Source of the DNA: Justusliebigvirus alia
DNA length: 64,000 nucleotides
Sequence record: OZ035799.1
Direction: 5' to 3' (one strand)
In this document: positions 15,760-62,007 of the stretch, in pieces
How the letters are laid out: every line of letters begins with the position of its first letter
Numbering within the stretch: the first letter of the stretch is position 1
The notes under the pieces: model-generated
Database searches by the model: none
Seen by the model: only the letters and a program-made list of their open reading frames with translations
What the model was told of the DNA's origin: nothing
Made by a program: the position numbers and the translations under genes

Positions 15760-15974
15760 TATTTTGAAAATTTTTATTTTTATAAAAAGGGGTGTGGGTT
15801 TCATGTACGGAAATTCACCCTCTGAATAATATATCCAGAGTAAGTATTATTTTGTACTCTGTTAATAAATTATTTAATTTGTTTGTTGGAATATGTTATC
15901 TGGTTTTTAAAAGGCATACTATCTCTTAACTACTACTTATAACAGAACAGTAAAATCATTTTTATAAAAAGGAC

Positions 15975-16182
15975 AAAATTATTTAAAGTTTTTACAGATT
16001 TTTGGGTACAAATTTAGAAAATGAAAAGTTCAAGTTTGGTCAAAATTATTTAAAGTTTTTGTACGTATTTCTATCCAGATTTTGAAAATGAAAACTTCAA
16101 TTTTTTAAAAATTCCCCAGTTTATTTAAAGTTTTTTTGCCTTTTTCCGTAGAAAAATCAAAAATGAAAAGTTCAATTTCGTG
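15975..16182. repeat. three imperfect tandem repeats of about 65-75 bp
   Basis: Each unit begins (a)aaattatttaaagttttt and ends gaaaatgaaaa(g/c)ttcaa. Confidence 0.6.
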
Positions 16183-16195
16183 TTTTTATGGGTGT

Positions 16196-16295
16196 GCGTA
16201 TGATAATCATTTTCATTTGTAAATGAGAATCATTATCATTTAAGTATGTAAGTGATAATCATTCTCACTAAGAGAATGAGAATCATTAGCAAATG
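16196..16295. promoter_or_regulatory. cluster of Fur-box-like palindromes
   Basis: gtaaatgagaatcattatc and gagaatgagaatcattagc each match 16/19 of the Fur consensus GATAATGATAATCATTATC; flanked by gataatcatt half-sites. Confidence 0.35.
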
Positions 16296-16573
16296 AGAAT
16301 TTTTCTCATTTAGAGAATAACGCGCAGGGGTGGTGTTTGTCTCGCGCTCCCGTGTCCCCTCGCCATACAATAAGAATAGCATAACCAACAACAAAAGCAA
16401 GCGATTATTTTTATCTTTACATTTCTTTACAAATTTATTTTAGACGAGCTACCGGCGATCAACCTTCCAACCAGTAGTGCCCTGGTATGTTAGCCCCGCC
16501 TTTACGCCGTGGGGGTGGCGTTTCCTCTTCTGTATGTAAAACAGTATAAGCCCGATCCCTGGGCTTGTCAAGA

Positions 16574-17104: not shown

Positions 17105-17200
17105 GATGATCAAGAAAGAAAACAGCTTGACGGTTGGAACGATTAACGCTATCATTCTTGCCGTTCCATTTTGGGTTGTAGTAGCGGTTATTATTTTTTA
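17105..17200 (+). CDS. hypothetical small hydrophobic peptide
   Basis: 31 aa (MIKKENSLTVGTINAIILAVPFWVVVAVIIF); TTGACG-17-TAGTAT promoter-like sequence about 150 nt upstream; speculative. Confidence 0.2.
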
Positions 17201-17209
17201 AAAATATTC

Positions 17210-17267
17210 TTGACAACGTTTTTTAATCTGATAAGATGTATCACATAGGGCGGCAATAGTGCCGCTC
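17210..17267 (+). promoter_or_regulatory. promoter + 5' GC hairpin cassette
   Basis: TTGACA (17210-17215), spacer, CACATA, hairpin GGGCGGCAATAGTGCCGCTC (17248-17267), then AGAGAGA SD and ATG 17290. Confidence 0.5.
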
Positions 17268-17289
17268 ATAACAGAAGAGAGAAATAATC

Positions 17290-17562
17290 ATGGCATCATA
17301 TAGCGCATCAATGATTGTAATGGGTATCACTGGTAAACCTATGCGCGGTGGCGGATCTTTCGCTAACATCAATATTGATGGACGTTTATCCCTGGACGCA
17401 GCGATCACAGTGGCACGGGAAACGTTTAAAAAAGAATGTAATTTCAATAAACAAGATTATCTCGGCTTCGTTATTGAAAAAACCGCGCGCTTTGTTGATT
17501 ATAAAAGCCCGAAAATGATCGACACTACACTAAAGGCGCAAGATGTAGCTTTTTTGCTTTAA
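17290..17562 (+). CDS. hypothetical protein
   Basis: 90 aa ORF behind cassette. Confidence 0.5.
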   Translation: MASYSASMIVMGITGKPMRGGGSFANINIDGRLSLDAAITVARETFKKECNFNKQDYLGFVIEKTARFVDYKSPKMIDTTLKAQDVAFLL

Positions 17563-17570
17563 GGCTTGAC

Positions 17571-17625
17571 ACTGAAAAATAATTTGGTAATATATACCAC
17601 ATAAGGCGGGAAATGGTTTCCCGCC
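17571..17625 (+). promoter_or_regulatory. promoter + 5' GC hairpin cassette
   Basis: TTGACA ... TATATACCACATAA ... hairpin GGCGGGAAATGGTTTCCCGCC (17605-17625). Confidence 0.5.
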
Positions 17626-17647
17626 AAATCAAAGAAAGGGTAACACA

Positions 17648-18010
17648 ATGAGCAAGCAAATCAATACTATCATGTTAAACCTGGTATCTTTCCGTGATGA
17701 CGTGAAAAATCTTTCGCGTGATGCAGTGGATGCACGGATCGAAAGCTATCGCACACAGATCGCAACATTACCGTTAAAACGTGATCAACATGCCGCTAAT
17801 ATGATGCTTGATGCTATGATTAAAAAGATGATTCAGTGTGATCTTACCCTGGCTTATGAATATGCTGGCGATCTCTTTGTAACGTATAATAAGCCCGTTC
17901 CAGGTATGAGCACCACGGAAGAATTGCATGCCTTAAATCTGCGACAAGATGCATGGGATAACATGCGCCGTGTTATGGTATGGGCCGAAAGCGGTAAAAT
18001 TTACGAATAA
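17648..18010 (+). CDS. hypothetical protein
   Basis: 120 aa ORF behind cassette. Confidence 0.5.
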   Translation: MSKQINTIMLNLVSFRDDVKNLSRDAVDARIESYRTQIATLPLKRDQHAANMMLDAMIKKMIQCDLTLAYEYAGDLFVTYNKPVPGMSTTEELHALNLRQDAWDNMRRVMVWAESGKIYE

Positions 18011-18017
18011 AAACGGT

Positions 18018-18070
18018 TGACATTGCACGAAAACCTGATAAGCTATCTTAAAGCGGGAATAGTTCCCGCT
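18018..18070 (+). promoter_or_regulatory. promoter + 5' GC hairpin cassette
   Basis: TTGACA then hairpin AGCGGGAATAGTTCCCGCT (18052-18070). Confidence 0.5.
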
Positions 18071-18088
18071 TACATAGGATAAAACTTT

Positions 18089-18235
18089 ATGAAACAATAT
18101 GTAATGAGTATTCACACCAAAAACGGCGCTACTGTTACGACTCCGGCACGGTTTGCACTTGTAAACCGTTGCAAGAGACTAAAACGAGAGCTAAAAAATA
18201 ACCGTGCAACCGGTTTTAAACGCTGGGGAGGATAA
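18089..18235 (+). CDS. hypothetical small basic protein
   Basis: 48 aa (MKQYVMSIHTKNGATVTTPARFALVNRCKRLKRELKNNRATGFKRWGG); not in track. Confidence 0.35.
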   Translation: MKQYVMSIHTKNGATVTTPARFALVNRCKRLKRELKNNRATGFKRWGG

Positions 18236-18237
18236 TC

Positions 18238-18498
18238 TTGTTTTTTCTAAAAGTTTTTGATAATGTGATCGCTTTTGAACATGCTACGACGTTCGACCTG
18301 GCGAGATACGCTATCAGGTTTAAAGATAATGTTTATCCCCGTGCTGGCGGCGGTTACACTATTTTTAATCATCGTAATGCGCAACTAACAGATATAACGA
18401 ATCCAGATCCTGGAGTGTATCGCATAGGCTGGCTACCGTCAAAAGACGCTGCAAGCATGTTTAAGGTATGTAAACTACTAACAGAAGAGGCGAACTAA
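18238..18498 (+). CDS. hypothetical protein (TTG start)
   Basis: Track ORF begins at TTG 18238 preceded by GGGGAGGA SD. Confidence 0.4.
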   Translation: MFFLKVFDNVIAFEHATTFDLARYAIRFKDNVYPRAGGGYTIFNHRNAQLTDITNPDPGVYRIGWLPSKDAASMFKVCKLLTEEAN

Positions 18499-18499
18499 C

Positions 18500-19054
18500 A
18501 TGGGGCGTGAATATGTGATCCAGTCCTGGGTAAAGCATGATGCTAATGATCCGCGCATAATACCAGATGACATGATCGATCACATGGTAGGGTATAGCGG
18601 GGAGCAGATAGGAAATCGAGCGGCAAAGAGCAACGGCAACACCAGGACGCGATCCGTTCGCCCTGGATGGCTGGCGAATGGTAACGCTGACATTGCAAGC
18701 GCCGCAGATCCAAGCGATGACGCTAAAAATAATCCCTTATACAGCATTGATCCGGCTTTTAAGGTGTTGGAAGAGTATCCCGCTAAATTAGCCGCACTAG
18801 ATAAGGCATACGAAGAAAAGCGCATGGCATGGACTGTATACAACACCGCTAAAATGGTGCTAGATGCAAAATTGATTAAAGCCCAGGAGAAGATCAATAA
18901 ACTTGTTGCAGTAGCGCAAGAGGAAGACCAGGGCGACCAGGAGGAAGAGGAAGAAATCATGCCTACCCTGGAAGAGGAAGAGATCCAGCCATACATGCCG
19001 ACGGAAGAGGAAAAAAGACAAGCCTTAAAAAATTATGAAAATTGCATTGTGTAA
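18500..19054 (+). CDS. hypothetical protein with acidic C-terminal tail
   Basis: 184 aa; C-terminus EEDQGDQEEEEEIMPTLEEEEIQPYMPTEEE. Confidence 0.5.
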   Translation: MGREYVIQSWVKHDANDPRIIPDDMIDHMVGYSGEQIGNRAAKSNGNTRTRSVRPGWLANGNADIASAADPSDDAKNNPLYSIDPAFKVLEEYPAKLAALDKAYEEKRMAWTVYNTAKMVLDAKLIKAQEKINKLVAVAQEEDQGDQEEEEEIMPTLEEEEIQPYMPTEEEKRQALKNYENCIV

Positions 19055-19133
19055 GGCTTGACATATGCAAACAAGCCCCGTAATATATACCACATAGAGC
19101 GGGGCAACGCCTCAAAGGTGAAATAAAAATCAC

Positions 19134-19161
19134 TTGACACCTGAAATCAGTAAGCTATAAT
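19134..19161 (+). promoter_or_regulatory. sigma70-type promoter (consensus -35/-10)
   Basis: TTGACA (19134-19139), 16-nt spacer, TATAAT (19156-19161); drives ORF at 19199. Confidence 0.5.
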
Positions 19162-19198
19162 GCTTATATAGATTGAAACATTACTAAGGAATAAAAGC

Positions 19199-19378
19199 AT
19201 GGCTATTATTGCAAAGACTGAGATCGTAGGTTTAGATTCTATCATCCTGGCATATGAGGAAGCTATAGAAATGTATGTGGTTTCCTATGGTGATTATATC
19301 CGTGAATATAAATTTATTGATCTAGCTTTTGAATGTTATATTCACCAGGTCAATAAAGCCTATGATGATTATCGTTAA
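19199..19378 (+). CDS. hypothetical small protein
   Basis: 59 aa (MAIIAKTEIVGLDSIILAYEEAIEMYVVSYGDYIREYKFIDLAFECYIHQVNKAYDDYR); AAGGAATAA SD. Confidence 0.4.
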   Translation: MAIIAKTEIVGLDSIILAYEEAIEMYVVSYGDYIREYKFIDLAFECYIHQVNKAYDDYR

Positions 19379-19473
19379 AAGTTTTAGTCTTGTGCTATTG
19401 ACAACGAACGATAGTACAAGCATAATAACTTTTATCGGGAATACTCCTAACTAATCAAAAGAGATTAAAGACT

Positions 19474-19839
19474 ATGGCTAAAAATATCAATGTTTCTGCT
19501 TATGCTACCCTGGCTAACACTGCTAAAATTGAACTATCCAGCATTGAAGCGGTACATATTAGCGCCCGTCGCTGGTTTCAAAAGTCTTATGGTAATACTT
19601 ATTTCTCTTTGATGGTTGACGTTGAGATCGGCGGTAAACTGATTGAAGTCGTTAACGTTCCGTTTCATTATGGTTATGGTGATCATTTTGATACCGTTGC
19701 CCTGGAAGAGTTTAGCAAGGTTATCAACCTGGAAGGTAAAGACTTTTCAAATTATGCTTACCTTTCCCGTTTTTGCCGTGACAATGGGATCGCTGTATAC
19801 AGTCATGCAAGCGATGTTAAACGTAAAAAAGATTTATAA
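19474..19839 (+). CDS. hypothetical protein
   Basis: 121 aa ORF. Confidence 0.5.
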   Translation: MAKNINVSAYATLANTAKIELSSIEAVHISARRWFQKSYGNTYFSLMVDVEIGGKLIEVVNVPFHYGYGDHFDTVALEEFSKVINLEGKDFSNYAYLSRFCRDNGIAVYSHASDVKRKKDL

Positions 19840-19849
19840 AAAGCATTGA

Positions 19850-19904
19850 CAGCACGAATAAAAAGCATATAATACTTATATCGAGAGCGGGAATAGTTCC
19901 CGCC
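19850..19904 (+). promoter_or_regulatory. promoter + 5' GC hairpin cassette
   Basis: TTGACA-16-TATAAT then hairpin AGCGGGAATAGTTCCCGCC (19886-19904). Confidence 0.5.
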
Positions 19905-19927
19905 TCACTGAAAAAGAGATTAACATC

Positions 19928-20167
19928 ATGGCTAAATCTAAAATGTACAACGGTCACAAAAACAAAACTCATTGGAATGTAAGCCTTTGGATTAATAACG
20001 ATGAATCGTTATACTTATACGCTGTAGGTTTAATAAATGAGTGTGGTAATAAAGATAAAGCGGCGGATCTAATGTGCTACAGATTAAAACAGGACGGAAT
20101 CACTCATACACCTGATGGTTTCAAGTATAGTAAAACTGCAATCCGTGCCGCTATGGTTGGAATGTAA
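19928..20167 (+). CDS. hypothetical protein
   Basis: 79 aa ORF behind cassette. Confidence 0.5.
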   Translation: MAKSKMYNGHKNKTHWNVSLWINNDESLYLYAVGLINECGNKDKAADLMCYRLKQDGITHTPDGFKYSKTAIRAAMVGM

Positions 20168-20180
20168 AGGAGACATAAAA

Positions 20181-20261
20181 ATGAAACATCGTTCGACCTA
20201 TCTCACAAAACGTTTTAGCTTAGATCATAAATTGGGCTATTACGGAAGAAATAGAAAATAA
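20181..20261 (+). CDS. hypothetical very small protein
   Basis: 26 aa ORF with strong AAAGGAGA SD; speculative. Confidence 0.25.
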   Translation: MKHRSTYLTKRFSLDHKLGYYGRNRK

Positions 20262-20262
20262 T

Positions 20263-20322
20263 TTGACACTGTTTAAAATTCTGGTATAGTTTATCACATA
20301 GGGCGGGAAATGGTTTCCCGCC
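20263..20322 (+). promoter_or_regulatory. promoter + 5' GC hairpin cassette
   Basis: TTGACA (20263-20268), TATAGT (20285-20290), hairpin GGGCGGGAAATGGTTTCCCGCC (20301-20322). Confidence 0.5.
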
Positions 20323-20344
20323 AAATCAAAGAAAGGTTATCATT

Positions 20345-20572
20345 ATGGCTATCGTTATTGTTCGCGTATCCGGTACGGTTGGAATCTCTCAGGTAGTAGC
20401 AGTTATCACAGAGAAGAAAGGGGATGATCTTCACTCCTCCTTGAATAGCTGGGCGGTCGCTAACTTTGGGCAATGGTCGAGCGTTGAGTACATCGAAGCC
20501 TACCAGGTGCCAACGATTAGCCTAACCGATCTGAATGTTGATCGCTTGTTGTGCCTGGATCAATTAAATTAA
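20345..20572 (+). CDS. hypothetical protein
   Basis: 75 aa ORF behind cassette. Confidence 0.5.
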   Translation: MAIVIVRVSGTVGISQVVAVITEKKGDDLHSSLNSWAVANFGQWSSVEYIEAYQVPTISLTDLNVDRLLCLDQLN

Positions 20573-20580
20573 AAATAATA

Positions 20581-20638
20581 TTGACAAGATAACTAAAATC
20601 AGTAAAATGTAATGCATAGGGCGGCAATAGTGCCGCTC
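20581..20638 (+). promoter_or_regulatory. promoter + 5' GC hairpin cassette
   Basis: TTGACA (20581-20586), hairpin GGGCGGCAATAGTGCCGCTC (20619-20638). Confidence 0.5.
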
Positions 20639-20659
20639 CTAGTGAGAGAGATTATCAAA

Positions 20660-20875
20660 ATGACTAATATCCGCACCTTGTTAAAAAATGCAAAGCAAGT
20701 TTTATTTTCAGATGACGAATATTTTAATAAAGATATTACAGGCGTGAAAAATTTAAAAGACGTGAAGGATGTTATCGGTATCCGTGGATCTTTACGTAAA
20801 GGTGACATATACGGTAACAAGGTGCAATATAAACTGTCAAAAGATTATGATTTTACTTTGACATTTATTTCATAA
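20660..20875 (+). CDS. hypothetical protein
   Basis: Start at MTNIRTLLKNAKQ (ATG 20660) after hairpin; the longer track ORF would begin inside the hairpin. Confidence 0.5.
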   Translation: MTNIRTLLKNAKQVLFSDDEYFNKDITGVKNLKDVKDVIGIRGSLRKGDIYGNKVQYKLSKDYDFTLTFIS

Positions 20876-20920
20876 AACCGCTTGCAATACTGCAAAAATA
20901 AAGTAAACTGTACTCATCAA

Positions 20921-20942
20921 GGCGGTGGAATAGCCCACCGCC
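20921..20942 (+). promoter_or_regulatory. 5' GC hairpin (variant)
   Basis: GGCGGTGGAATAGCCCACCGCC; compensatory stem changes relative to other copies. Confidence 0.45.
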
Positions 20943-20965
20943 TAACAAAGAGAAGAGGAAACATC

Positions 20966-21136
20966 ATGATCACTTTCGCTACCCGTGAAGCCGCTCGCAA
21001 CGTTGCACGTAAAGTTAACGCCGCCAACCTGGGCGCTACGCTTAAAGCCCCGGTAAAAGATGAATCAGGTAAATGGATCTTCCCTGGTCTGCGTCACGCT
21101 GATAAGCTGGGAACGTTAACGCTAAAAAATAAATAA
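20966..21136 (+). CDS. hypothetical protein
   Basis: 56 aa (MITFATREAARNVARKVNAANLG...), GAGGAAACATC-ATG. Confidence 0.45.
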   Translation: MITFATREAARNVARKVNAANLGATLKAPVKDESGKWIFPGLRHADKLGTLTLKNK

Positions 21137-21181
21137 AATCCGCTTGACAGTAGCATCATTTATAAGTAAAGTAACAACAAC

Positions 21182-21202
21182 GGCGGGAAATGGTTTCCCG
21201 CC
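21182..21202 (+). promoter_or_regulatory. 5' GC hairpin
   Basis: GGCGGGAAATGGTTTCCCGCC after TTGACA at about 21143. Confidence 0.5.
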
Positions 21203-21222
21203 ATCAATAAAGAGATAAGATC

Positions 21223-21582
21223 ATGAAATCAGTAAAAGCAATTAAAACTTACATTGTGTCGGCTATTTCTTTTGATGGTACTACAACCGAAAAAGAAAAG
21301 ATCACCGAACTGATGCGCCGTTTTAACTCTGAATACTGGTATCCCGATAATCAAAAACGTTACAATTATAACGTGATCAAGGCGATAGCCTCATGGTTAC
21401 AAGGTTTACCGTCAGAAATCAATATTGCTTTTGATTATAACGAGATCGATCACTTGTTAATTGAATGGAAGTACATAAAAGAAACAAGCAAAGAAACAAC
21501 CGTTACCCGTGAGCGGGAAAATTATTGGTTATATATTGCAAGCATGATCGTAATCCTGGCAAAACAGCATAACGTGGCGTAA
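21223..21582 (+). CDS. hypothetical protein
   Basis: 119 aa ORF. Confidence 0.5.
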   Translation: MKSVKAIKTYIVSAISFDGTTTEKEKITELMRRFNSEYWYPDNQKRYNYNVIKAIASWLQGLPSEINIAFDYNEIDHLLIEWKYIKETSKETTVTRERENYWLYIASMIVILAKQHNVA

Positions 21583-21597
21583 TTAAGAGGAAGAAAC

Positions 21598-21735
21598 ATG
21601 AACGCATCACAGCAGATCGAAAAATTCAACCGCAGCAAGGCGCGTAAAGATTGGAACGAAGAGATCACCAAAAAAGGCGACAAGCGGAACAAAACAAAGA
21701 GAGATCGCAGCACAAAAAGATACTGGAACGAATAA
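21598..21735 (+). CDS. hypothetical small basic protein
   Basis: 45 aa, Lys/Arg-rich; AAGAGGAAGAAAC SD; not in track. Confidence 0.4.
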   Translation: MNASQQIEKFNRSKARKDWNEEITKKGDKRNKTKRDRSTKRYWNE

Positions 21736-21740
21736 CAAAA

Positions 21741-21766
21741 AAGGGCGCAATAAGCGCCCTTTTAGC
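21741..21766 (+). terminator. rho-independent terminator
   Basis: GGGCGCAATAAGCGCCC hairpin + TTTTAG; same hairpin family at 25952 and 27124. Confidence 0.6.
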
Positions 21767-21853
21767 TTATATAGAGGCTTGTTACCCATAGGCAATGGTA
21801 ATGCCAGGATAAGCCTATAAACCACGTTAGACAGCTTTACAGGAGCTTTAAAA

Positions 21854-22036
21854 ATGAAATTAGAAGAAATAAGCAAGGCACTAGCCCAGGGGCAAAGGTT
21901 AAACGCCCGTTATCGTGATCAATATGGCTTCATAACCAGCGGCGTGATCCTGGGGATTGAAGGCAATAAGATTTTTATTGACACGTTGAAAAACGTTGTA
22001 TATAGTGACAATATAATCTCAATAAAACATATATGA
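21854..22036 (+). CDS. hypothetical protein
   Basis: 60 aa ORF. Confidence 0.4.
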   Translation: MKLEEISKALAQGQRLNARYRDQYGFITSGVILGIEGNKIFIDTLKNVVYSDNIISIKHI

Positions 22037-22044
22037 GGCAAGAA

Positions 22045-22446
22045 ATGAAAAAATTATTGATCGCTGGTTTAATCTCTTTTGGCATGGTTGGAACATCTAG
22101 CGCGGCGATATCCTCCACAGTAGCAGAATTAAGCGCCGTTGATGCAATGGAAAACGTCATGCTTATTAATAATGCGATCCCCGATGAAATCATGGAGGAT
22201 TCACACATGATCGCTTATGGTGCTGTTACACAACTAACGGCAAAAATAGATAAATCTATTGTTAATGGCTTAAATGAAGATGTACCATGTGAAATTATTA
22301 CCAGTGTGCTCACTACTCAAAATTTTACGCCGTGGTTAAAAAGTATTCAAAAAGTACACAGTACAGCCGCAGATCGTAGCAATGAAAAACTAGTGTCAGC
22401 ACTTGCAACGTATACCCTAGCAAAATGTACCGAGATAAAAGATTGA
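22045..22446 (+). CDS. putative secreted/periplasmic protein
   Basis: N-terminal MKKLLIAGLISFGMVGTSSAA signal-peptide-like segment. Confidence 0.5.
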   Translation: MKKLLIAGLISFGMVGTSSAAISSTVAELSAVDAMENVMLINNAIPDEIMEDSHMIAYGAVTQLTAKIDKSIVNGLNEDVPCEIITSVLTTQNFTPWLKSIQKVHSTAADRSNEKLVSALATYTLAKCTEIKD

Positions 22447-22493
22447 CAATATAGAAAGCACGTTATAAGATACACACAACAAAGGAGAACTAC

Positions 22494-22796
22494 ATGAACG
22501 GCATAGCTAAAACGTTTTTTCTTTTTTCTGGTGTAAATGATCCATCAATAAAAGTCGATAGTGTAAAAGAAAACAATACTATCACAGCTAAATTGTCTCA
22601 AGATGAAACAAATAACGTGCTAATCATTAATCTTAAAGAAATAACAAAAGGTTATTACACTATTGCTTACCATGCGATCTATAATGCTGGTACTAGTGAG
22701 GAAGTGCAAACAAGCAACAACGAAAGCGCGGCGCTACCTGGTGATCTGGTGCTGGGCGTTATCAGTTTAATTGTCAATGATTTTTTTAAGGAGTAA
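22494..22796 (+). CDS. hypothetical protein
   Basis: 100 aa ORF; TTGACA promoter-like sequence at 22443. Confidence 0.45.
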   Translation: MNGIAKTFFLFSGVNDPSIKVDSVKENNTITAKLSQDETNNVLIINLKEITKGYYTIAYHAIYNAGTSEEVQTSNNESAALPGDLVLGVISLIVNDFFKE

Positions 22797-22800
22797 AACC

Positions 22801-22896
22801 ATGCCCTATTTACATTTATTTTTCGGTATCTTATTGACAGGATCTTTTTTCTTCTGTATGCTTGTTTCTATTGTAAACCACGTTTTAAGACATTAA
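22801..22896 (+). CDS. hypothetical small membrane peptide
   Basis: 31 aa (MPYLHLFFGILLTGSFFFCMLVSIVNHVLRH); not in track. Confidence 0.3.
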   Translation: MPYLHLFFGILLTGSFFFCMLVSIVNHVLRH

Positions 22897-22905
22897 GGAA
22901 ACAGC

Positions 22906-23025
22906 ATGAAAATTATTCCCGTACAGTATAGCGTAATAAATCCAGCATATGAGGAAGGAAGGAAAACAAGCATGGCTTTATGTTGTATTGCTACTATAGC
23001 CATGTTATTATATATTGTGTTTTAA
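22906..23025 (+). CDS. hypothetical small membrane peptide
   Basis: 39 aa with C-terminal hydrophobic stretch ALCCIATIAMLLYIVF. Confidence 0.3.
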   Translation: MKIIPVQYSVINPAYEEGRKTSMALCCIATIAMLLYIVF

Positions 23026-23119
23026 TAGGTTTTATAGTTGTACGCTTTAAAGGCTTGACAATTTTTTGTTATGCTTTAAAATATATCTTGAAAACGGCAA
23101 AGGCCGCAAACAAAAGGGT

Positions 23120-23449
23120 AAAATTATGAAATCTGTGATCGGTGTTTATTTGGATAACTCTGATTTTTTCTATCATCGTGCGCGTTTCCTTGATGCGATT
23201 GAAATGATAGAATCAGGCTTTAAAGAGTATCGCCTTGCACATGATGACCTGGAAGCATTACAGGGCAATAGTGTTTTTACATTGCAAGCTAAAGCACTAT
23301 GCAAAAGCCGGATCGACATTGCAAGCAAAAAGATAGAACGCGGCATGTCCTGGTTGCGCACCGCAGAAATCAACATGGGGCAATGGTACGGCGAAAACTT
23401 AGAAAATAAACACACTTTTGTAAATGTAGAAAATATTAAAGATTATTGA
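23120..23449 (+). CDS. hypothetical protein
   Basis: Start at MKSVIGVYLD with AAAGGGTAAAA SD. Confidence 0.5.
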   Translation, partial: KIMKSVIGVYLDNSDFFYHRARFLDAIEMIESGFKEYRLAHDDLEALQGNSVFTLQAKALCKSRIDIASKKIERGMSWLRTAEINMGQWYGENLENKHTFVNVENIKDY

Positions 23450-23450
23450 T

Positions 23451-23502
23451 TGACAGCACACCTGATAAGTAATATATTGTATCTCATAGAGCGGGGAAAT
23501 GG
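23451..23502 (+). promoter_or_regulatory. promoter + 5' GC hairpin cassette
   Basis: TTGACA (23451), TATATT, hairpin GCGGGGAAATGGTTTCCCCGC (23481-23501). Confidence 0.5.
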
Positions 23503-23531
23503 TTTCCCCGCCTTAACAGAAGAGATAAGAT

Positions 23532-23816
23532 ATGAAGATCACAAAAGCACTTTCCAACTATGCAGCACGTCGCGGCTTATGCTTAACCGTTGAAAACTTA
23601 GGGAAAGAAGATTTTTTGTGCTTTTGGGAGCTTGAGAATGATAATGAGTGGATCTTCTCTTATTCTATCTGCAAAGATCAAAATGGTTGCTTGTTAACAT
23701 GGCGAGGTAATATCTATTTACCGGAAGAAATAAAACAAGAATTACCAGGCACGATCATGACTGAGAAACAGCTTAAGGAAGTGATCAATTTTGTAGGGCA
23801 AAACATTAAAAAATAA
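23532..23816 (+). CDS. hypothetical protein
   Basis: 94 aa ORF behind cassette. Confidence 0.5.
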   Translation: MKITKALSNYAARRGLCLTVENLGKEDFLCFWELENDNEWIFSYSICKDQNGCLLTWRGNIYLPEEIKQELPGTIMTEKQLKEVINFVGQNIKK

Positions 23817-23817
23817 T

Positions 23818-23877
23818 TTGACAGTAGGCAAACAACGTAGTAAAGTTTATCACATAGGGCGGGAAATGGTTTCCCGC
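23818..23877 (+). promoter_or_regulatory. promoter + 5' GC hairpin cassette
   Basis: TTGACA (23818), hairpin GGGCGGGAAATGGTTTCCCGC (23857-23877). Confidence 0.5.
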
Positions 23878-23900
23878 TCACAACAAAAGAGAAACAAATC

Positions 23901-24071
23901 ATGATCCCGACTATGTTTTACGTATCGCGCAAAGGTCACAATATTTTTTGGTCTGAAGATTTAAATGAAGCCATGACGTTTGCCCGTGATCGTGTTGCTA
24001 TCGGTGGCGTTAATATTACCGTAACCGATGAAAACGGCATTGAATACTACAACGGCGACGATGAAGAGTAA
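23901..24071 (+). CDS. hypothetical protein
   Basis: 56 aa (MIPTMFYVSRKGHNIFWSEDLNEAMTF...); not in track. Confidence 0.4.
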   Translation: MIPTMFYVSRKGHNIFWSEDLNEAMTFARDRVAIGGVNITVTDENGIEYYNGDDEE

Positions 24072-24078
24072 TTAATAA

Positions 24079-24100
24079 GGCGGGGGGAGTATTCCCCGCC
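24079..24100 (+). promoter_or_regulatory. 5' GC hairpin without upstream -35 box
   Basis: GGCGGGGGGAGTATTCCCCGCC starts 8 nt after the preceding stop codon; no TTGACA upstream. Confidence 0.45.
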
Positions 24101-24119
24101 ATCAATAAAGAGATAAATC

Positions 24120-24389
24120 ATGAAAATATCATTGGACGTTGCAATCAAGGCCATCGAATCCGGTTACACCCTGGTAAAAGATGATAAGGCTAAAATAGTG
24201 CATCATGTTAACAAGGAAACAGGCGAAAGCATGATCACATATAAAGCCGCCTACTTTCTCCAATCAGTAGCAGATCCGCGCGTACAGCGCCAGGTCACGG
24301 CGGCTATTGCTAAAAAATTATGTGCTTTACAGGGCACAAGTTTTAACGAGATCCCGCCGTGTTTTGACTGGTCGAGCTTGAAAAAATAG
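24120..24389 (+). CDS. hypothetical protein
   Basis: 89 aa ORF. Confidence 0.5.
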   Translation: MKISLDVAIKAIESGYTLVKDDKAKIVHHVNKETGESMITYKAAYFLQSVADPRVQRQVTAAIAKKLCALQGTSFNEIPPCFDWSSLKK

Positions 24390-24391
24390 TT

Positions 24392-24448
24392 TGACAAAAA
24401 TTATAAATCGGGTAGAATGTATTTCGTAGGGCGGCAATAGTGCCGCTC
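24392..24448 (+). promoter_or_regulatory. promoter + 5' GC hairpin cassette
   Basis: TTGACA (24392), hairpin GGGCGGCAATAGTGCCGCTC (24429-24448). Confidence 0.5.
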
Positions 24449-24469
24449 GCAACTAAAAGAGAAATCATC

Positions 24470-24664
24470 ATGGCGCTTAAAAAACTAACAAGCAATACTC
24501 GTTGGGATGAAATCGACGGGGAAGTATACATTTTCGCCCGTAAACCAGGTGATCAAAAATGGTCAAAGGCTTTTACTTGTCACCCTGCAACAATAGATCT
24601 AATAAAAAGTAAAGGTTTACGTGAAGCAGTAGCGAGAAGTTTACTGATTCCTTGTAAAAAATAG
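24470..24664 (+). CDS. hypothetical protein
   Basis: Start at MALKKLTSNTRW (ATG 24470) after hairpin. Confidence 0.45.
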   Translation: MALKKLTSNTRWDEIDGEVYIFARKPGDQKWSKAFTCHPATIDLIKSKGLREAVARSLLIPCKK

Positions 24665-24727
24665 TTTGACAATATGCGGTTATCTGGTAAAGTGTACCAC
24701 GTAGGGCGGGGCAATAAGGCAACGCCC
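24665..24727 (+). promoter_or_regulatory. promoter + 5' GC hairpin cassette (variant)
   Basis: TTGACA (24665), hairpin GGGCGGGGCAATAAGGCAACGCCC (24704-24727). Confidence 0.45.
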
Positions 24728-24745
24728 ACTAATGAGGGTAAAATC

Positions 24746-24850
24746 ATGTTAGAGAAAATTTTCACGGTTGTAATAGTGGGCCTGGCGTTATCGGTTGGAG
24801 TGATTGCAACTATGGCTAACATGATCCTATCTTCCCACGGTATTGGATAA
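24746..24850 (+). CDS. hypothetical small membrane peptide
   Basis: 34 aa (MLEKIFTVVIVGLALSVGVIATMANMILSSHGIG); not in track. Confidence 0.3.
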   Translation: MLEKIFTVVIVGLALSVGVIATMANMILSSHGIG

Positions 24851-24860
24851 GGTGAATCAA

Positions 24861-25076
24861 ATGATCACGAATAAGACAGGTAAAACGGAATTTTTACGCG
24901 GCTTGCAAATAGGTAAACCTGAGATCTGGCATTGCACTAAAAGACCACGTGACGAAATGAAAGATTTCACCGCTACTTTACAACGTGTTAAAATATCTAT
25001 CACACAGAAAAAAGCCTTGTTAGTAGTAGAAAACGAGATCCCGCAAACCATTATTATTGTCGAGCGTACAGCATGA
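24861..25076 (+). CDS. hypothetical protein
   Basis: First ATG (MITNKTGKTE) of a track ORF whose listed start is TTG. Confidence 0.45.
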   Translation: MITNKTGKTEFLRGLQIGKPEIWHCTKRPRDEMKDFTATLQRVKISITQKKALLVVENEIPQTIIIVERTA

Positions 25077-25459
25077 AAACTGAAATCATTAACGAAATGA
25101 TCAACGGCTATAAAGAAGCCTTTATTTTTGCCGAACCAGCGACGGATCACAATGGGGAATATATTGAGAATCTAGACGATTATGATTTTTCTCCTAGCGC
25201 CCTGAAACGTATTACCAGCGATGTGACCGCCTTTTGTAGTGCCAATGTTGCCGCTATCTCTGAGGCAATGAGCGACGGCGCAACAGCAAACCAGATCGGG
25301 AATGACTTACATTTCACCCGTAACGGTCACGGCGTAGGCTTTTGGGATCGCCCTGAAATATACACTACTAACACCGCCAACCGCCTAACAAATGCAGCTA
25401 AATTAATGCCATCGGTGCATGCTTACATTGGTGAAGATAATTTGATTTATATTGAATAA
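25073..25459 (+). CDS. hypothetical protein
   Basis: 128 aa ORF, ATGA overlap with previous gene. Confidence 0.5.
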   Translation: MKTEIINEMINGYKEAFIFAEPATDHNGEYIENLDDYDFSPSALKRITSDVTAFCSANVAAISEAMSDGATANQIGNDLHFTRNGHGVGFWDRPEIYTTNTANRLTNAAKLMPSVHAYIGEDNLIYIE

Positions 25460-25465
25460 AAGTAT

Positions 25466-25523
25466 TGACACCGATCCCCAGTATGGTATTATTTACCACG
25501 TAGGCGGGAAATGGTTTCCCGCC
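25466..25523 (+). promoter_or_regulatory. promoter + 5' GC hairpin cassette
   Basis: TTGACA (25466), hairpin GGCGGGAAATGGTTTCCCGCC (25503-25523). Confidence 0.5.
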
Positions 25524-25546
25524 AGGTAATCAAAAAGGTAAATACT

Positions 25547-25936
25547 ATGCGCAACCTGGTTTCTGTTTCTAACGTTGAAAAATTCCAATCTTTACAGGGT
25601 ATCGTTAACAACGTAGCGCCTTTTTTAGTCAATGGCTTGATTGCAAAGATGAAGAATAAACATCATGCCGCATGGTCTGCTTACTGCTTTGACAATGATG
25701 AAAAAGCGGCTGAAATGATGTTAAATATGCTGTTAGACAGTGTAGAATCATCTTTACCGGAAAACATCGCAGAAGAGATCACCTATCGTTATAATATGGC
25801 GATCACTTACCAGGAGGTTGCGCAATTTAATATGATGGATGATGACGAACAACAGGATCAGGAAATTTTCTGGGAGTATGCTGATCGCCAATCGGCTTTT
25901 GATGAAAAATTAGCGATGTATTATAATGAATATTAA
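25547..25936 (+). CDS. hypothetical protein
   Basis: Start at MRNLVSVSNV with AAAAAGG SD; track ORF begins inside hairpin. Confidence 0.5.
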   Translation: MRNLVSVSNVEKFQSLQGIVNNVAPFLVNGLIAKMKNKHHAAWSAYCFDNDEKAAEMMLNMLLDSVESSLPENIAEEITYRYNMAITYQEVAQFNMMDDDEQQDQEIFWEYADRQSAFDEKLAMYYNEY

Positions 25937-25951
25937 TACACGGTAAAAGAA

Positions 25952-25977
25952 AGGGGCGCACTAAGCGCCCTTTTTTG
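25952..25977 (+). terminator. rho-independent terminator
   Basis: GGGGCGCACTAAGCGCCC hairpin + TTTTTTG. Confidence 0.65.
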
Positions 25978-26399
25978 TATTCTTTTTTCACAATGGAAGC
26001 GACACGTAAAGAATAGGCGTAAAGGTGGCGTAAAACCATCTAAAACCGACTGTAACCGCTTAAACAAGGTAGGAATGATTAATCACCTTACCAGGATGAA
26101 AAAGCCGTTATAAAGCTATCTAGAGCGTTTAAAGCACATAGGAAATAATTTGCTTTTTATCTTGCCTTTTATTCTGCTTTTGATTATTATTATGGAACGG
26201 GCGGCACCTGGGGACAGGGGGAAGATAATCACCGGACGACCCCGCTATATATTGATAGCTAACATCTATCAAACAACAAAACATCAAAGAAATAAACTAT
26301 CAAATCTTTACAATCTCATCTATTGACCGATAAATCATAGCAGTTTAATATTGTTTTTAGAGGGTAGAACATACCCAAAACGAAAACAGGAAAAAGAAA

Positions 26400-26636
26400 A
26401 TGAAAGAAGTCATGATCCTCAAAAAATCACCTATTTTACGTGGTGGCTTTATCGCTTACTCTGATGATCTGTTAATTGCAACGGTTGCAAAAATACTAAA
26501 ATCAGAAGAGGATAGTAAAAACGGCGTTTATCGTATCTGTTTCACCCGTGGGAAATTGCAAGGCAAGATCGCCTATGCTTTTGATTTACAAGATGTAAAT
26601 GATAAAATCTGCGCTGTTATTGATTATGCAAAATAA
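26400..26636 (+). CDS. hypothetical protein
   Basis: 78 aa ORF preceded by TTGACC-17-TAATAT promoter-like sequence. Confidence 0.5.
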   Translation: MKEVMILKKSPILRGGFIAYSDDLLIATVAKILKSEEDSKNGVYRICFTRGKLQGKIAYAFDLQDVNDKICAVIDYAK

Positions 26637-26723
26637 TTAACTTTCTTATTGACACCGGATCACGCTTACATTATTATTTATCACGTAGGGCAAATCATTT
26701 TAAACGGTAAACGAGGAAACACC

Positions 26724-27107
26724 ATGAGCAATATCATCAACCTGGCAGCGACTGTAAACGGTAAAGACTTTAACGGCGCTGTAGACCGTGATCCTATGTG
26801 GTGCTTATCAGTGTTTAAAGGCGACCTGGTTGAAGTTAGAACAACCGAAGGGTATAGCGATGATTATAAATGCGAGATCCATTTACATAACTGGTACACG
26901 GGTAAAACTTATGCGCTGAATCACGCGTTTATCGGGAAAATTGAATATCGCGAAATGATCGACGAAGAAACGGGGCAAGATTTTAGCGATTATGTTTATA
27001 TTCGTTCCGAAACATTAGCCGAACGGTTGATCGAGAAAATGAAAGCAAAAAATAAAATTAATTTATCTCATTGGATTGATATAACAAACGATCCAGCTTA
27101 TCAGTAA
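26724..27107 (+). CDS. hypothetical protein
   Basis: Start at MSNIINLAATVNGK with GAGGAAACACC SD. Confidence 0.5.
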   Translation: MSNIINLAATVNGKDFNGAVDRDPMWCLSVFKGDLVEVRTTEGYSDDYKCEIHLHNWYTGKTYALNHAFIGKIEYREMIDEETGQDFSDYVYIRSETLAERLIEKMKAKNKINLSHWIDITNDPAYQ

Positions 27108-27123
27108 ATAACATTCCATACAA

Positions 27124-27149
27124 GGGCGCAATAAGCGCCCTTTCTTTTT
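27124..27149 (+). terminator. rho-independent terminator
   Basis: GGGCGCAATAAGCGCCC hairpin + TTTCTTTTT; closes the plus-strand small-gene array. Confidence 0.65.
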
Positions 27150-27429
27150 ACCTCAATAAAGATGATAGCTTTTACCTATCAAAAACGTTCACCGAAAAAA
27201 GTGAATAGATCGCGGTATCGAGCTAATCAAGGAGCAGATGAACAACCATACCATGAAGATCATAAGGCGCTTACAACGTGTTTTAGACCGCTTATTTTTA
27301 ATTTCTTCATGCAACTATCTGGCAAAAACAGCCTTTTTCTTGTCTTTCCTCTTAAATGATAATCATTCTTATTTATAGCTGATTATTTATGCAATAAACT
27401 GCATAATGCAATAATGATAATCATTCTTA

Positions 27430-40942: not shown

Positions 40943-40985
40943 AATATTCTCCTATAAGAAAAGGGGCTTTCGCCCCTTGGTCAAG

Positions 40986-42355: not shown

Positions 42356-42358
42356 ATA

Positions 42359-42380
42359 AAGCCCCTGCTTGGGGGCTTTG
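42359..42380 (-). terminator. rho-independent terminator (minus strand)
   Basis: AAATAAAGCCCCTGCTTGGGGGCTTT; A-run on top strand precedes the hairpin. Confidence 0.5.
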
Positions 42381-50265: not shown

Positions 50266-50285
50266 AACCCCCCTTGAAGGGGGTT
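50266..50285 (-). terminator. rho-independent terminator (minus strand)
   Basis: AACCCCCCTTGAAGGGGGTT hairpin preceded on top strand by TAATAA. Confidence 0.5.
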
Positions 50286-52243: not shown

Positions 52244-52263
52244 AAAAGGGGCTTTCGCCCCTT
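52244..52263. terminator. bidirectional rho-independent terminator
   Basis: ATAAAAGGGGCTTTCGCCCCTTTGTTT. Confidence 0.6.
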
Positions 52264-52266
52264 TGT

Positions 52267-56659: not shown

Positions 56660-56986
56660 TTACCAAACGTGTTGAGAAATAATAGTTTCCGTTTCAATGT
56701 TATATTTTTCAAGAAGTTGTGCGTAGGCTTCTTTTGCATTCTTATTTAGTTGCTCAAGATCTACAGCTACACTTCCTTCGCCACCTTCTAAATAAATCCC
56801 ATATATGCAATAAGATGCATCAGCGTCATAGAAAGGTGAGATACGGCTTAAATCAAGACCTTCTTGTAAGAACCAATTAAAATCTCCATCAAATTCTTCT
56901 TCAATTCTAGGATCTTCTCCTACAGCCTCTTCCCATTTATTAAAAGGTGCACCCTGTAACATACGCCATTCAGTGGCAACTCCCAT
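56660..56986 (-). CDS. hypothetical protein
   Basis: 108 aa acidic ORF with AGGAGGAAGATA SD. Confidence 0.5.
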   Translation of the reverse strand: MGVATEWRMLQGAPFNKWEEAVGEDPRIEEEFDGDFNWFLQEGLDLSRISPFYDADASYCIYGIYLEGGEGSVAVDLEQLNKNAKEAYAQLLEKYNIETETIISQHVW

Positions 56987-57122
56987 TATCTTCCTCCTCT
57001 TCTTTTTCTTCCGTGTGAACGAAGCCTAAACCGTTACAATTCCAACACGGAATAAATTGTTCCATACTAACAATAAAATTCCCAGTACCACCGCAGATAG
57101 GACAAATACTTACATCGTCCAT
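56970..57122 (-). CDS. hypothetical small zinc-ribbon protein
   Basis: 50 aa (MDDVSICPICGGTGNF...CWNCNGLGF...) with two CxxC pairs; GAGGAG SD; resembles the zinc-ribbon tail of ORF 36953; not in track. Confidence 0.35.
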   Translation of the reverse strand: MDDVSICPICGGTGNFIVSMEQFIPCWNCNGLGFVHTEEKEEEEDNGSCH

Positions 57123-58939: not shown

Positions 58940-58957
58940 AAGGGGGACAAAGCCCCC
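58940..58957 (-). terminator. putative attenuator/terminator hairpin
   Basis: AGGGGGACAAAGCCCCCT hairpin preceded on top strand by AAGAAA, located between nrdA stop and next start. Confidence 0.4.
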
Positions 58958-61910: not shown

Positions 61911-62007
61911 AAATTCTCCTTCTCTCTTTTAAGGAGAGCATAGCTCTCCTAACGTTAGCCTATACTACACGAATCTCAATTAAAAGTCAACTATAATTTT
62001 AAGTTGA

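Follow-up and report, generated by a model that had tools for sequence, protein, structure and literature searches.

Promoter-early stem-loops (PeSLs), described in the T4-type phages RB49/phi1, PST, and nt-1 (Arbiol et al. 2010, PMC2839356; Comeau et al. 2014, PMC4122927), are intergenic units in which a strong sigma-70-like promoter and a G/C stem-loop precede ORFans in hyperplastic regions and which mediate modular shuffling (PMC2839356, PMC4122927). An RB49 PeSL stem-loop without a classical U-tract cut lacZ expression about as much as rrnB T1, and the authors speculated on a DNA-binding recombination protein (PMC2839356). Here we analyzed 64,000 nucleotides of the coliphage Justusliebigvirus alia (sequence record OZ035799.1; hereafter the window), a phi92-like myovirus of the Stephanstirmvirinae, in which an array of cassettes on the plus strand (17200-25549), each uniting a promoter, a GC hairpin, and a ribosome-binding site (RBS), stands before small open reading frames (ORFs). 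The window is 100% identical to bases 64001-128000 of OZ035770.1, and the hairpin class is confined to the array in the 148-kb genome, save for a single outlier beyond the window. The feature is genuine, strongly nonrandom, and under structural constraint. Judged from their letters, the cassettes are PeSL-type elements: architecture and evolutionary behavior are common to both, whereas sequence and the usual hairpin position are not.

Cassette architecture and comparison with PeSLs

The cassette consensus reads AAAAAA-N4-TTGACA-N16-17-TAnAAT-~4 nt-CACATA-hairpin-~8 nt A-rich linker-AAGAG-type Shine-Dalgarno (SD) sequence-ATG and forms a unit of ~85 bp, in which the -10 box is often TG-extended and the motif behind it is (C)ACATA, i.e., (C)AC-A/G-TA. 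The geometry is fixed, with 50-54 nt from the end of the -10 box and 17-24 nt from the end of the hairpin to the ATG. An exhaustive hairpin scan combined with reading of the sequence yielded 13 clean GC hairpins and about 4 decayed copies on the plus strand at 17.2-25.6 kb. The clean hairpins, with energies of -12 to -19 kcal/mol (n = 13), start at 17248, 17605, 18051, 19886, 20302, 20619, 20920, 21182, 23490, 23857, 24079, 24429, and 25503; the decayed set comprises an interrupted copy at 24704-24727, remnants at ~19098 and ~19435, and a promoter with CACGTAGGGC and no hairpin at 26649-26726. All hairpins listed in a model-generated first-pass annotation of the window were recovered, and its count of about 30 small plus-strand ORFs was correct; some details required amendment, in that GCGGGGAAATGGTTTCCCCGC starts at 23491 rather than 23481, the copy assigned to 20301 starts at 20302, and the hairpin at 23857 reads GGGCGGGAAAtggTTTCCCGCTC, with a 3' arm ending in GCTC and one G.U pair. 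The ~30 ORFs encode 26-184 aa, and 26 of the 29 tested match PHROG families, all of unknown function except for one membrane protein. For genes of this kind, the first-pass annotation suggested possible host-takeover and anti-defense roles.

The hairpins far exceed chance expectation. Between 17200 and 25600, 14 hairpins with a stem of at least 7 and at least 5 GC were counted (including a true terminator at 21739), versus 0.47 +/- 0.64 expected and a maximum of 3 in 200 dinucleotide shuffles. Because the aligned sequences had been chosen for folding, we also counted annotated spacers without the covariance model introduced below: 13/21 spacers of at least 45 nt in the window carry a hairpin versus ~0.14 expected, and the same count gave 10/23 in 121Q, 8/31 in UE-S1, and 9/23 in the rV5-like EmilHeitz, each against ~0.15 expected. 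Across these four lineages, 26-62% of the spacers carry a hairpin, a frequency 60-90x that expected by chance. Promoter-like sites matching at least 10/12 are strongly skewed toward the plus strand (21/23). The only cassette-like element outside the array, at genome positions 56958-57007 (L003 6958-7007) on the minus strand, reads GACATAGA-GCGGAGGA-ttg-TCCTCCGC, followed by an SD and an ATG, and matches the covariance model with E = 0.02. No Rfam family reached its gathering threshold in the 64 kb, and no tRNAs were found there either.

As in PeSLs, the unit is an intergenic motif of ~50-100 bp that unites a G/C stem-loop with an AT-rich tract, a strong sigma-70-like promoter, an SD, and an ATG; the units cluster in a variable region ahead of small ORFs of unknown function, and a "CACATA"-like sequence lies past the -10 box in both. 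In both systems, too, the motif is where indels and replacements among close relatives have their breakpoints, and chimeric motifs result. The features by which PeSLs are recognized, namely a promoter, a stem-loop in one of five positional subclasses, location at ORFans, and breakpoints with chimeras, were all found in the window cassettes. The differences concern position, sequence, hosts, and type of evidence. RB49 hairpins lie mostly inside the promoter, whereas those of the window are always downstream of the -10 box; when the PeSL-rich region of RB49 was analyzed in the same manner, only the ORF207 spacer had the window geometry, which corresponds to the rare fifth PeSL subclass (downstream of the -10 box). 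The covariance model found no match with E<1 in RB49 100-135 kb, that is, no sequence similarity to the RB49 PeSLs, and the PeSLs of PST and nt-1 likewise differ in sequence from those of RB49/phi1 (PMC4122927). PeSLs reside in Straboviridae, whereas the present elements occur in Stephanstirmvirinae, Vequintavirinae, and the jumbo Asteriusvirus. Furthermore, terminator activity and mini-circles have been demonstrated for PeSLs, whereas the window cassettes were analyzed at the level of sequence.

The cassettes also resemble morons and integron cassettes, which are single genes with their own expression signals gained and lost as units. However, morons combine a promoter with a real terminator and have no conserved joint, and integrons use an integrase and attC sites; in the array, the repeated promoter-hairpin unit itself serves as the joint, with no sign of a dedicated recombinase. 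In the literature on the phi92, rV5, phAPEC8, and 121Q groups, we found no earlier description of the cassette. The PeSL idea, known only from T4-type phages, is thereby extended to at least 3 further groups of large coliphages, including the therapy-relevant phi92/phAPEC8-like phages, and is joined by a variant with the stem-loop inside the predicted mRNA leader. This leader location would explain why annotation pipelines place many "terminators" directly downstream of promoters. The database records of Paula and ASO2A label these hairpins terminators, in ASO2A each ~10 nt downstream of an annotated promoter; in the papers on both phages, promoters and terminators were merely counted.

Fold conservation and position in the predicted leader

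A covariance model built from the 13 window copies was searched in the window and in loci of eight other phages, where it produced 125 matches, 124 of them on the coding strand. A hairpin is present in 107 of the matches, and these hairpins comprise 49 distinct stems, for example, GGCGGGAAA/TTTCCCGCC, GGGCGGCA/TGCCGCTC, GGGGAGAA/TTCTCCCC, GGTGGGGAA/TTCCCCACT, and GGGAAGTA/TACTTCCC. In loop-centered, gap-free alignments, covariation scores were 0.47 and 0.55 versus 0.22 and 0.17 in shuffled alignments, with 0/500 shuffles reaching the observed values, and both-sided changes occurred at 6/9 and 8/9 stem pairs; when the pairing partners were slid, the score was at most 0.21. The cleanest single case of compensation is provided by the UE-S1 ortholog of the cassette 19846-19930, in which the gene is preceded by GGTGGGGAAtagTTCCCCACT in UE-S1 and by GCGGGAAtagTTCCCGC in alia, which differ by two compensatory double changes (G-C to U-A and C-G to G-C). 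The sense RNA folds better than the antisense RNA in 38 of the 49 distinct copies (sign test 1.4e-4; the copies are related), and this computed difference in stability speaks for an element read as RNA or as a single strand rather than as a symmetric palindrome in duplex DNA. Stems are 7-10 bp long and vary widely in sequence and length. The loops measure 3-6 nt, are mostly UAG, UGG, or AUGG, and show a bias to UAG/UGG (29/49 distinct hairpins), in the form of (A)U(A/G)G closed by A-U pairs.

Two further measures were set aside. Column-wise covariation on the Infernal alignment of the 125 matches (74.5% paired versus 70.9% shuffled) was too noisy, because the stems differ in length and register. 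The count of G.U versus A.C pairs, 25:2, was biased by the hairpin finder, and the symmetric recount of 4:2 or 9:2 (p = 0.065) was not used as evidence.

Pairing begins 8-14 nt (mode 10) past the -10 hexamer in 90 promoter-linked copies; copies from jumbo phages have a mode of 12 and another intervening motif, TTACATCAA. Sigma-70 initiation takes place 7-8 nt past the -10 box, at a purine after a pyrimidine. Applied to the promoter geometry, this rule predicts transcription start sites (TSSs) that would leave 2-5 unpaired nt at the 5' end in 79 of the 90 copies. When 6 predicted leaders were folded into the ORF, the hairpin was kept in both the minimum free energy and the centroid structures, and the SD was unpaired. 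Stabilizing 5' stem-loops obey a rule of at most 2-4 nt at the 5' end. Work listed in PMC3997798 (Emory, Bouvet and Belasco 1992; Bouvet and Belasco 1992) ascribes stabilization of E. coli mRNAs to 5'-terminal stem-loops. As in the ompA and papA leaders of that work, a stable hairpin would stand a few nt from the predicted 5' end of the window leaders, followed by an open ribosome-binding region; the two differ in that ompA/papA are single-gene elements with a measured half-life effect, whereas the window element is a repeated, exchangeable cassette whose 5' end and half-life effect are predicted.

Not one of the plus-strand cassette hairpins passes a terminator scan, in which only 25948 and 27122 qualify as plus-strand intrinsic terminators; A-rich sequence follows the cassette hairpins. 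With both strands considered, T-rich tails were present in just 2/13 copies, both on the minus strand, and the intrinsic terminator was rejected as an identity for the cassette hairpin. The first-pass annotation stands in its claims that the fold rather than the sequence is conserved, as indicated by the covariation and the compensatory changes in UE-S1, that no U-tract follows the hairpin and that it is, by motif, not an intrinsic terminator, and that it sits where a 5'-proximal mRNA element would be, as judged from promoter spacing and leader folds. The PeSL precedent, the recombination joints, and the occurrence in other lineages had escaped it.

A lambdoid nut/boxB site, in which an N protein reads a short stem with a GNRA-like pentaloop together with boxA, was also rejected: the cassette loops have 3-4 nt and are mostly UAG, UGG, or AUGG, the stems have 7-10 bp, and no Rfam family matches. 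An N4-type hairpin promoter was set aside in view of the canonical sigma-70 promoter ahead of nearly every copy; in Certrevirus, a Vequintavirinae relative, no phage RNA polymerase gene was reported (PMC7344957).

Recombination at the cassettes and candidate functions of the hairpin

Approximately 290 phage records match parts of the region, and many of these matches are mosaic and consist of multiple pieces. In BLAST comparisons with six relatives, 26 of the 47 unique internal homology breakpoints fell into the 14.5% of the region that hairpin cassettes occupy (P = 9e-11). The breakpoints are spread across the whole cassette (-14 to +75), with 7/26 in the hairpin, not above its share of the length, and because of this scatter, site-specific cutting at the hairpin was rejected. 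Chimeric cassettes illustrate the outcome. Phage phi92 is without window positions 23901-24389 and has a single cassette in their place, which equals the left window cassette (23818-23903) up to TAGGGCGG and the right one (24391-24472) thereafter. Similarly, muut is without the gene 20660-20875, and its cassette changes partner, from that at 20581-20662 to that at 20882-20968, at the -10 box. In Phapecoctavirus, the gene order is permuted and the cassette 17566-17650 lies at both junctions, and in 121Q (a jumbo Asteriusvirus), an identical ~40-nt core of -10 box and hairpin from the cassette 19846-19930 stands ahead of an unrelated gene. By comparison of sequences, these chimeric cassettes directly show a role of the cassettes in recombination, which may simply follow from the repeats and not be the function under selection. 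They offer a concrete mechanism for shuffling the ORFan repertoire, where anti-defense genes are sought, within and between phage families.

The same cassette architecture occurs in Phapecoctavirus, Vequintavirus, and jumbo Asteriusvirus phages, and cassette-like sequences are present in relatives infecting Citrobacter, Enterobacter, Pantoea, Klebsiella, and Pectobacterium. The 59-aa gene 19199-19378 has 92-94% DNA identity to counterparts with unrelated flanks in many rV5-like Vequintavirus genomes, and the gene 19928-20167, together with its cassette, has 77-84% identity in jumbo phages (PBECO4, UE-S1); these similarities point to recent single-gene exchange between phage families. The region also matches, at ~90-92% identity, 19 unannotated "Campylobacter phage" records with C. 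jejuni as the host (e.g., MG065656, MG065650, and MG065674), and these host labels look doubtful.

We favor, at somewhat below an even chance, the reading that the units are early-gene expression cassettes in which the hairpin is a 5'-proximal mRNA element (a stabilizer or insulator) and the repeats double as recombination joints. It draws directly on the anatomy and nonrandom occurrence of the cassettes, the covariation, the absence of terminator tails, the breakpoint enrichment, and the chimeric cassettes; the TSS, the early timing, and the stabilizing or insulating role are what we infer. Host RNA polymerase, guided by an A-rich UP-like tract and a near-consensus sigma-70 promoter, would start at the purine of (C)AC-A/G-TA. 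With such a start, the cassette's mRNA would fold into the hairpin 2-5 nt from its 5' end, with the A/G-rich linker unstructured and the ribosome site free. RppH and the 5' sensor of RNase E would have less access to that end, and every unrelated ORF would obtain the same insulated leader. On read-through transcripts, the hairpin might form a 3'-end barrier for the upstream message. Since the ~85 bp recur every few hundred bases, they also provide homology for recombination, through which single ORFs are lost, gained, reordered, and traded, with unrelated coliphages among the partners. Read in this manner, the unit would be a natural compact insulated expression part, consisting of a promoter, a 5' hairpin, and an RBS, and the cassettes open a direct test of PeSL-type hairpin function.

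Several points weigh against this account. Approximately 3 unpaired nt may leave the 5' end open to RppH, and protection could be partial. As RNase E scans beyond simple stem-loops (PMC9943677), the hairpin would be no roadblock in itself, and protection must come from its proximity to the 5' end. Cassettes without a hairpin exist (19134, 21978, 22443, and 26649), and since they work, the hairpin would be dispensable for expression. Nor does a pure stability element need the UAG/UGG loop bias (29/49), and the copy at 24079 is internal to a transcript. Finally, the literature on the phi92, rV5, phAPEC8, and 121Q groups holds promoter and terminator counts only, with no TSS, transcriptome, half-life, or timing data.

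If the hairpin mainly attenuated or terminated polymerase arriving from upstream cassettes, each small gene would be a separate, dosage-limited unit. By analogy with the reporter-tested RB49 PeSL without a U-tract (PMC2839356), and given that the annotators of Paula and ASO2A called such sites terminators and that true terminators are rare in the array (only 3), this could be the case, but we hold it to be unlikely, as no plus-strand copy has a T-tract, the tails are A-rich, and a cassette's own transcript would also be attenuated ~25 nt past initiation. Rather unlikely, too, is that the hairpin marks all early mRNAs for joint handling by a trans-acting factor, be it a host protein or an RNA-binding repressor or endonuclease of the phage, for example, in early shut-off. 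The (A)U(A/G)G loop bias, kept in jumbo-phage copies with altered stems, and the fixed position in the leader would suit such a factor, whereas the wide variation in stem sequence, stem length, and loop size (3-6 nt) would not; no candidate protein was identified, and the shared loops may reflect common descent and cassette exchange. A broader version, which we regard as doubtful, would make the (A)U(A/G)G-loop hairpin both the shared tag for a trans-acting factor and the common exchange joint for ready-to-express ORFans among phi92/phAPEC8-like, rV5-like, and 121Q-like jumbo phages; if true, this would be a pan-phage gene-cassette system that needs no integrase and is under coordinated control after transcription.

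Explanations that dispense with a function of the RNA fare worse. The palindrome might act as DNA, either as an operator, with a dimeric phage repressor covering +3 to +25, or as a cruciform or hairpin target of a recombination nuclease. A site just past the start is the classical operator location, the PeSL authors speculated on a DNA-binding recombination protein (PMC2839356), and in phi92 and SKA64 the array is immediately preceded by endonuclease genes. Nevertheless, the half-sites change in compensating pairs that keep the fold and not a recognition sequence, the sense RNA folds better in 38/49 copies owing to G.U pairs, and breakpoints fall over the whole cassette, with no excess in the hairpin (7/26), all of which renders a DNA element very improbable. 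The least credible possibility, in our estimate, is a functionless hairpin that hitchhikes in a repeat spreading by recombination and gene conversion, its palindrome kept by the mode of spread. It would accommodate hairpins decayed or lost without loss of the gene (19058, 19398, 24666, and 26649) and the fact that only 26-62% of the spacers in the four lineages carry one, but not the compensatory changes in orthologous and paralogous copies, the conservation of spacing to the -10 box and the ATG across lineages with different stems, or the excess of hairpins over chance (60-90x).

Individual cassettes, terminators, and neighboring sequence

The array opens with the cassette 17210-17292, with TTGACA at 17210, TAAGAT ending at 17237, a hairpin at 17248-17267 (GGGCGGCA-atag-TGCCGCTC), and the ATG at 17290. 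It is followed by 17566-17650, with the -35 box at 17566, the -10 box ending at 17593, a hairpin at 17605-17625 (GGCGGGAAA-tgg-TTTCCCGCC), and the ATG at 17648, and by 18017-18091, with TTGACA at 18017, TAAGCT at 18039-18044, a hairpin at 18051-18071, just 6 nt past the -10 box, and the ATG at 18089. Two degenerate units come next: the decayed cassette 19058-19201 has a promoter at 19058-19086 with an CACATAGAGCGGGGCAACGCCTC remnant, a second consensus promoter at 19134-19161 without a hairpin, and the ATG at 19199, and the cassette 19398-19476 retains a degenerate hairpin remnant (CGGGAATACTCC) before the ATG at 19474. The cassette 19846-19930 comprises a consensus promoter (19846-19873), a hairpin at 19886-19904 (GCGGGAA-tag-TTCCCGC), and the ATG at 19928, and 20263-20347 comprises a promoter with a TG-extended -10 box (20263-20290), a hairpin at 20302-20322, and the ATG at 20345. 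The left and right partners of the muut chimera have, respectively, a promoter at 20581-20608, a hairpin at 20619-20638, and the ATG at 20660, and TTGCAA at 20882, TAAACT at 20904-20909, a hairpin at 20920-20943 (AGGCGGTGG-aatagc-CCACCGCCT), and the ATG at 20966. The cassette 21144-21225 has its promoter at 21144-21172, its hairpin at 21182-21202, and its ATG at 21223.

In the distal part, the cassette 23450-23534 has a promoter at 23450-23478, a hairpin at 23490-23512 (core GCGGGGAAA-tgg-TTTCCCCGC from 23491), and the ATG at 23532. The left partner of the phi92 chimera has its promoter at 23818-23846, its hairpin at 23857-23879, and its ATG at 23901; the right partner has them at 24391-24418, 24429-24448, and 24470. 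Between the two, at 24040-24122, a hairpin at 24079-24100 (GGCGGGGG-gagtat-TCCCCGCC) lies 7 nt past a stop codon and is followed by the ATG at 24120. The first-pass annotation had described this copy as lacking a -35 box; this is only partly right, as MAFFT aligns the promoters of the other cassettes with TTGAAT (24040)-N18-AAGAGT (at 24064), which lies within the 3' end of the upstream ORF and looks like a decayed promoter. The cassette 24666-24748 has an interrupted hairpin (GGGCG at 24704-24708 and CGCCC at 24723-24727) and the ATG at 24746, and 25465-25549 has a TG-extended promoter at 25465-25492, a hairpin at 25503-25523, and the ATG at 25547. The hairpin-less cassette 26649-26726, in which the promoter and CACGTAGGGC are kept, ends in the ATG at 26724. 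All of these units are on the plus strand.

A class apart from the cassette hairpins is the true terminator-type hairpin at 21739-21763 (AAAAGGGCGC-aataa-GCGCCCTTTT), with A/T runs on both sides. The terminator scan identified 2 plus-strand intrinsic terminators with a T-tract, one at the end of the main array (25948-25976) and one after the last small gene (27122-27150). All three terminators (21739-21763, 25954-25970, and 27122-27142) belong to one repeat family, AAGGGCGC-aataa/actaa-GCGCCCTT, flanked on each side by A and T runs, and are therefore probably bidirectional. Past the terminator of the array, an ORF-free gap of 460 nt (25937-26399) includes a GC-rich segment at ~26195-26250 and gave no Rfam or tRNA match; a weaker promoter and a GGGTA-gaaca-TACCC hairpin precede the ATG at 26400.

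Just upstream of the array, 15860-16320 is noncoding and AT-rich, with three direct repeats of ~70 nt (15958-16178) and, at 16199-16312, three ~40-nt repeats of the TGAGAATCATT type with an inverted pair. The equivalent sites in muut and tuntematon are annotated as repeat_region, and the repeats may constitute an origin or a regulatory iteron region. A divergent minus-strand promoter is located at 16571-16543.

A second class of hairpins was observed on the minus strand, at 40961-40978, 42358-42379, 50266-50285, 52245-52264, 58943-58957, and 61932-61950. Each is a GC hairpin, often with a T-run, located 2-12 nt before a strong SD and an ATG, and some have a loose promoter match upstream. The genes that follow them are probably late, and the hairpins could be terminator/RBS junctions or late-gene leader hairpins.

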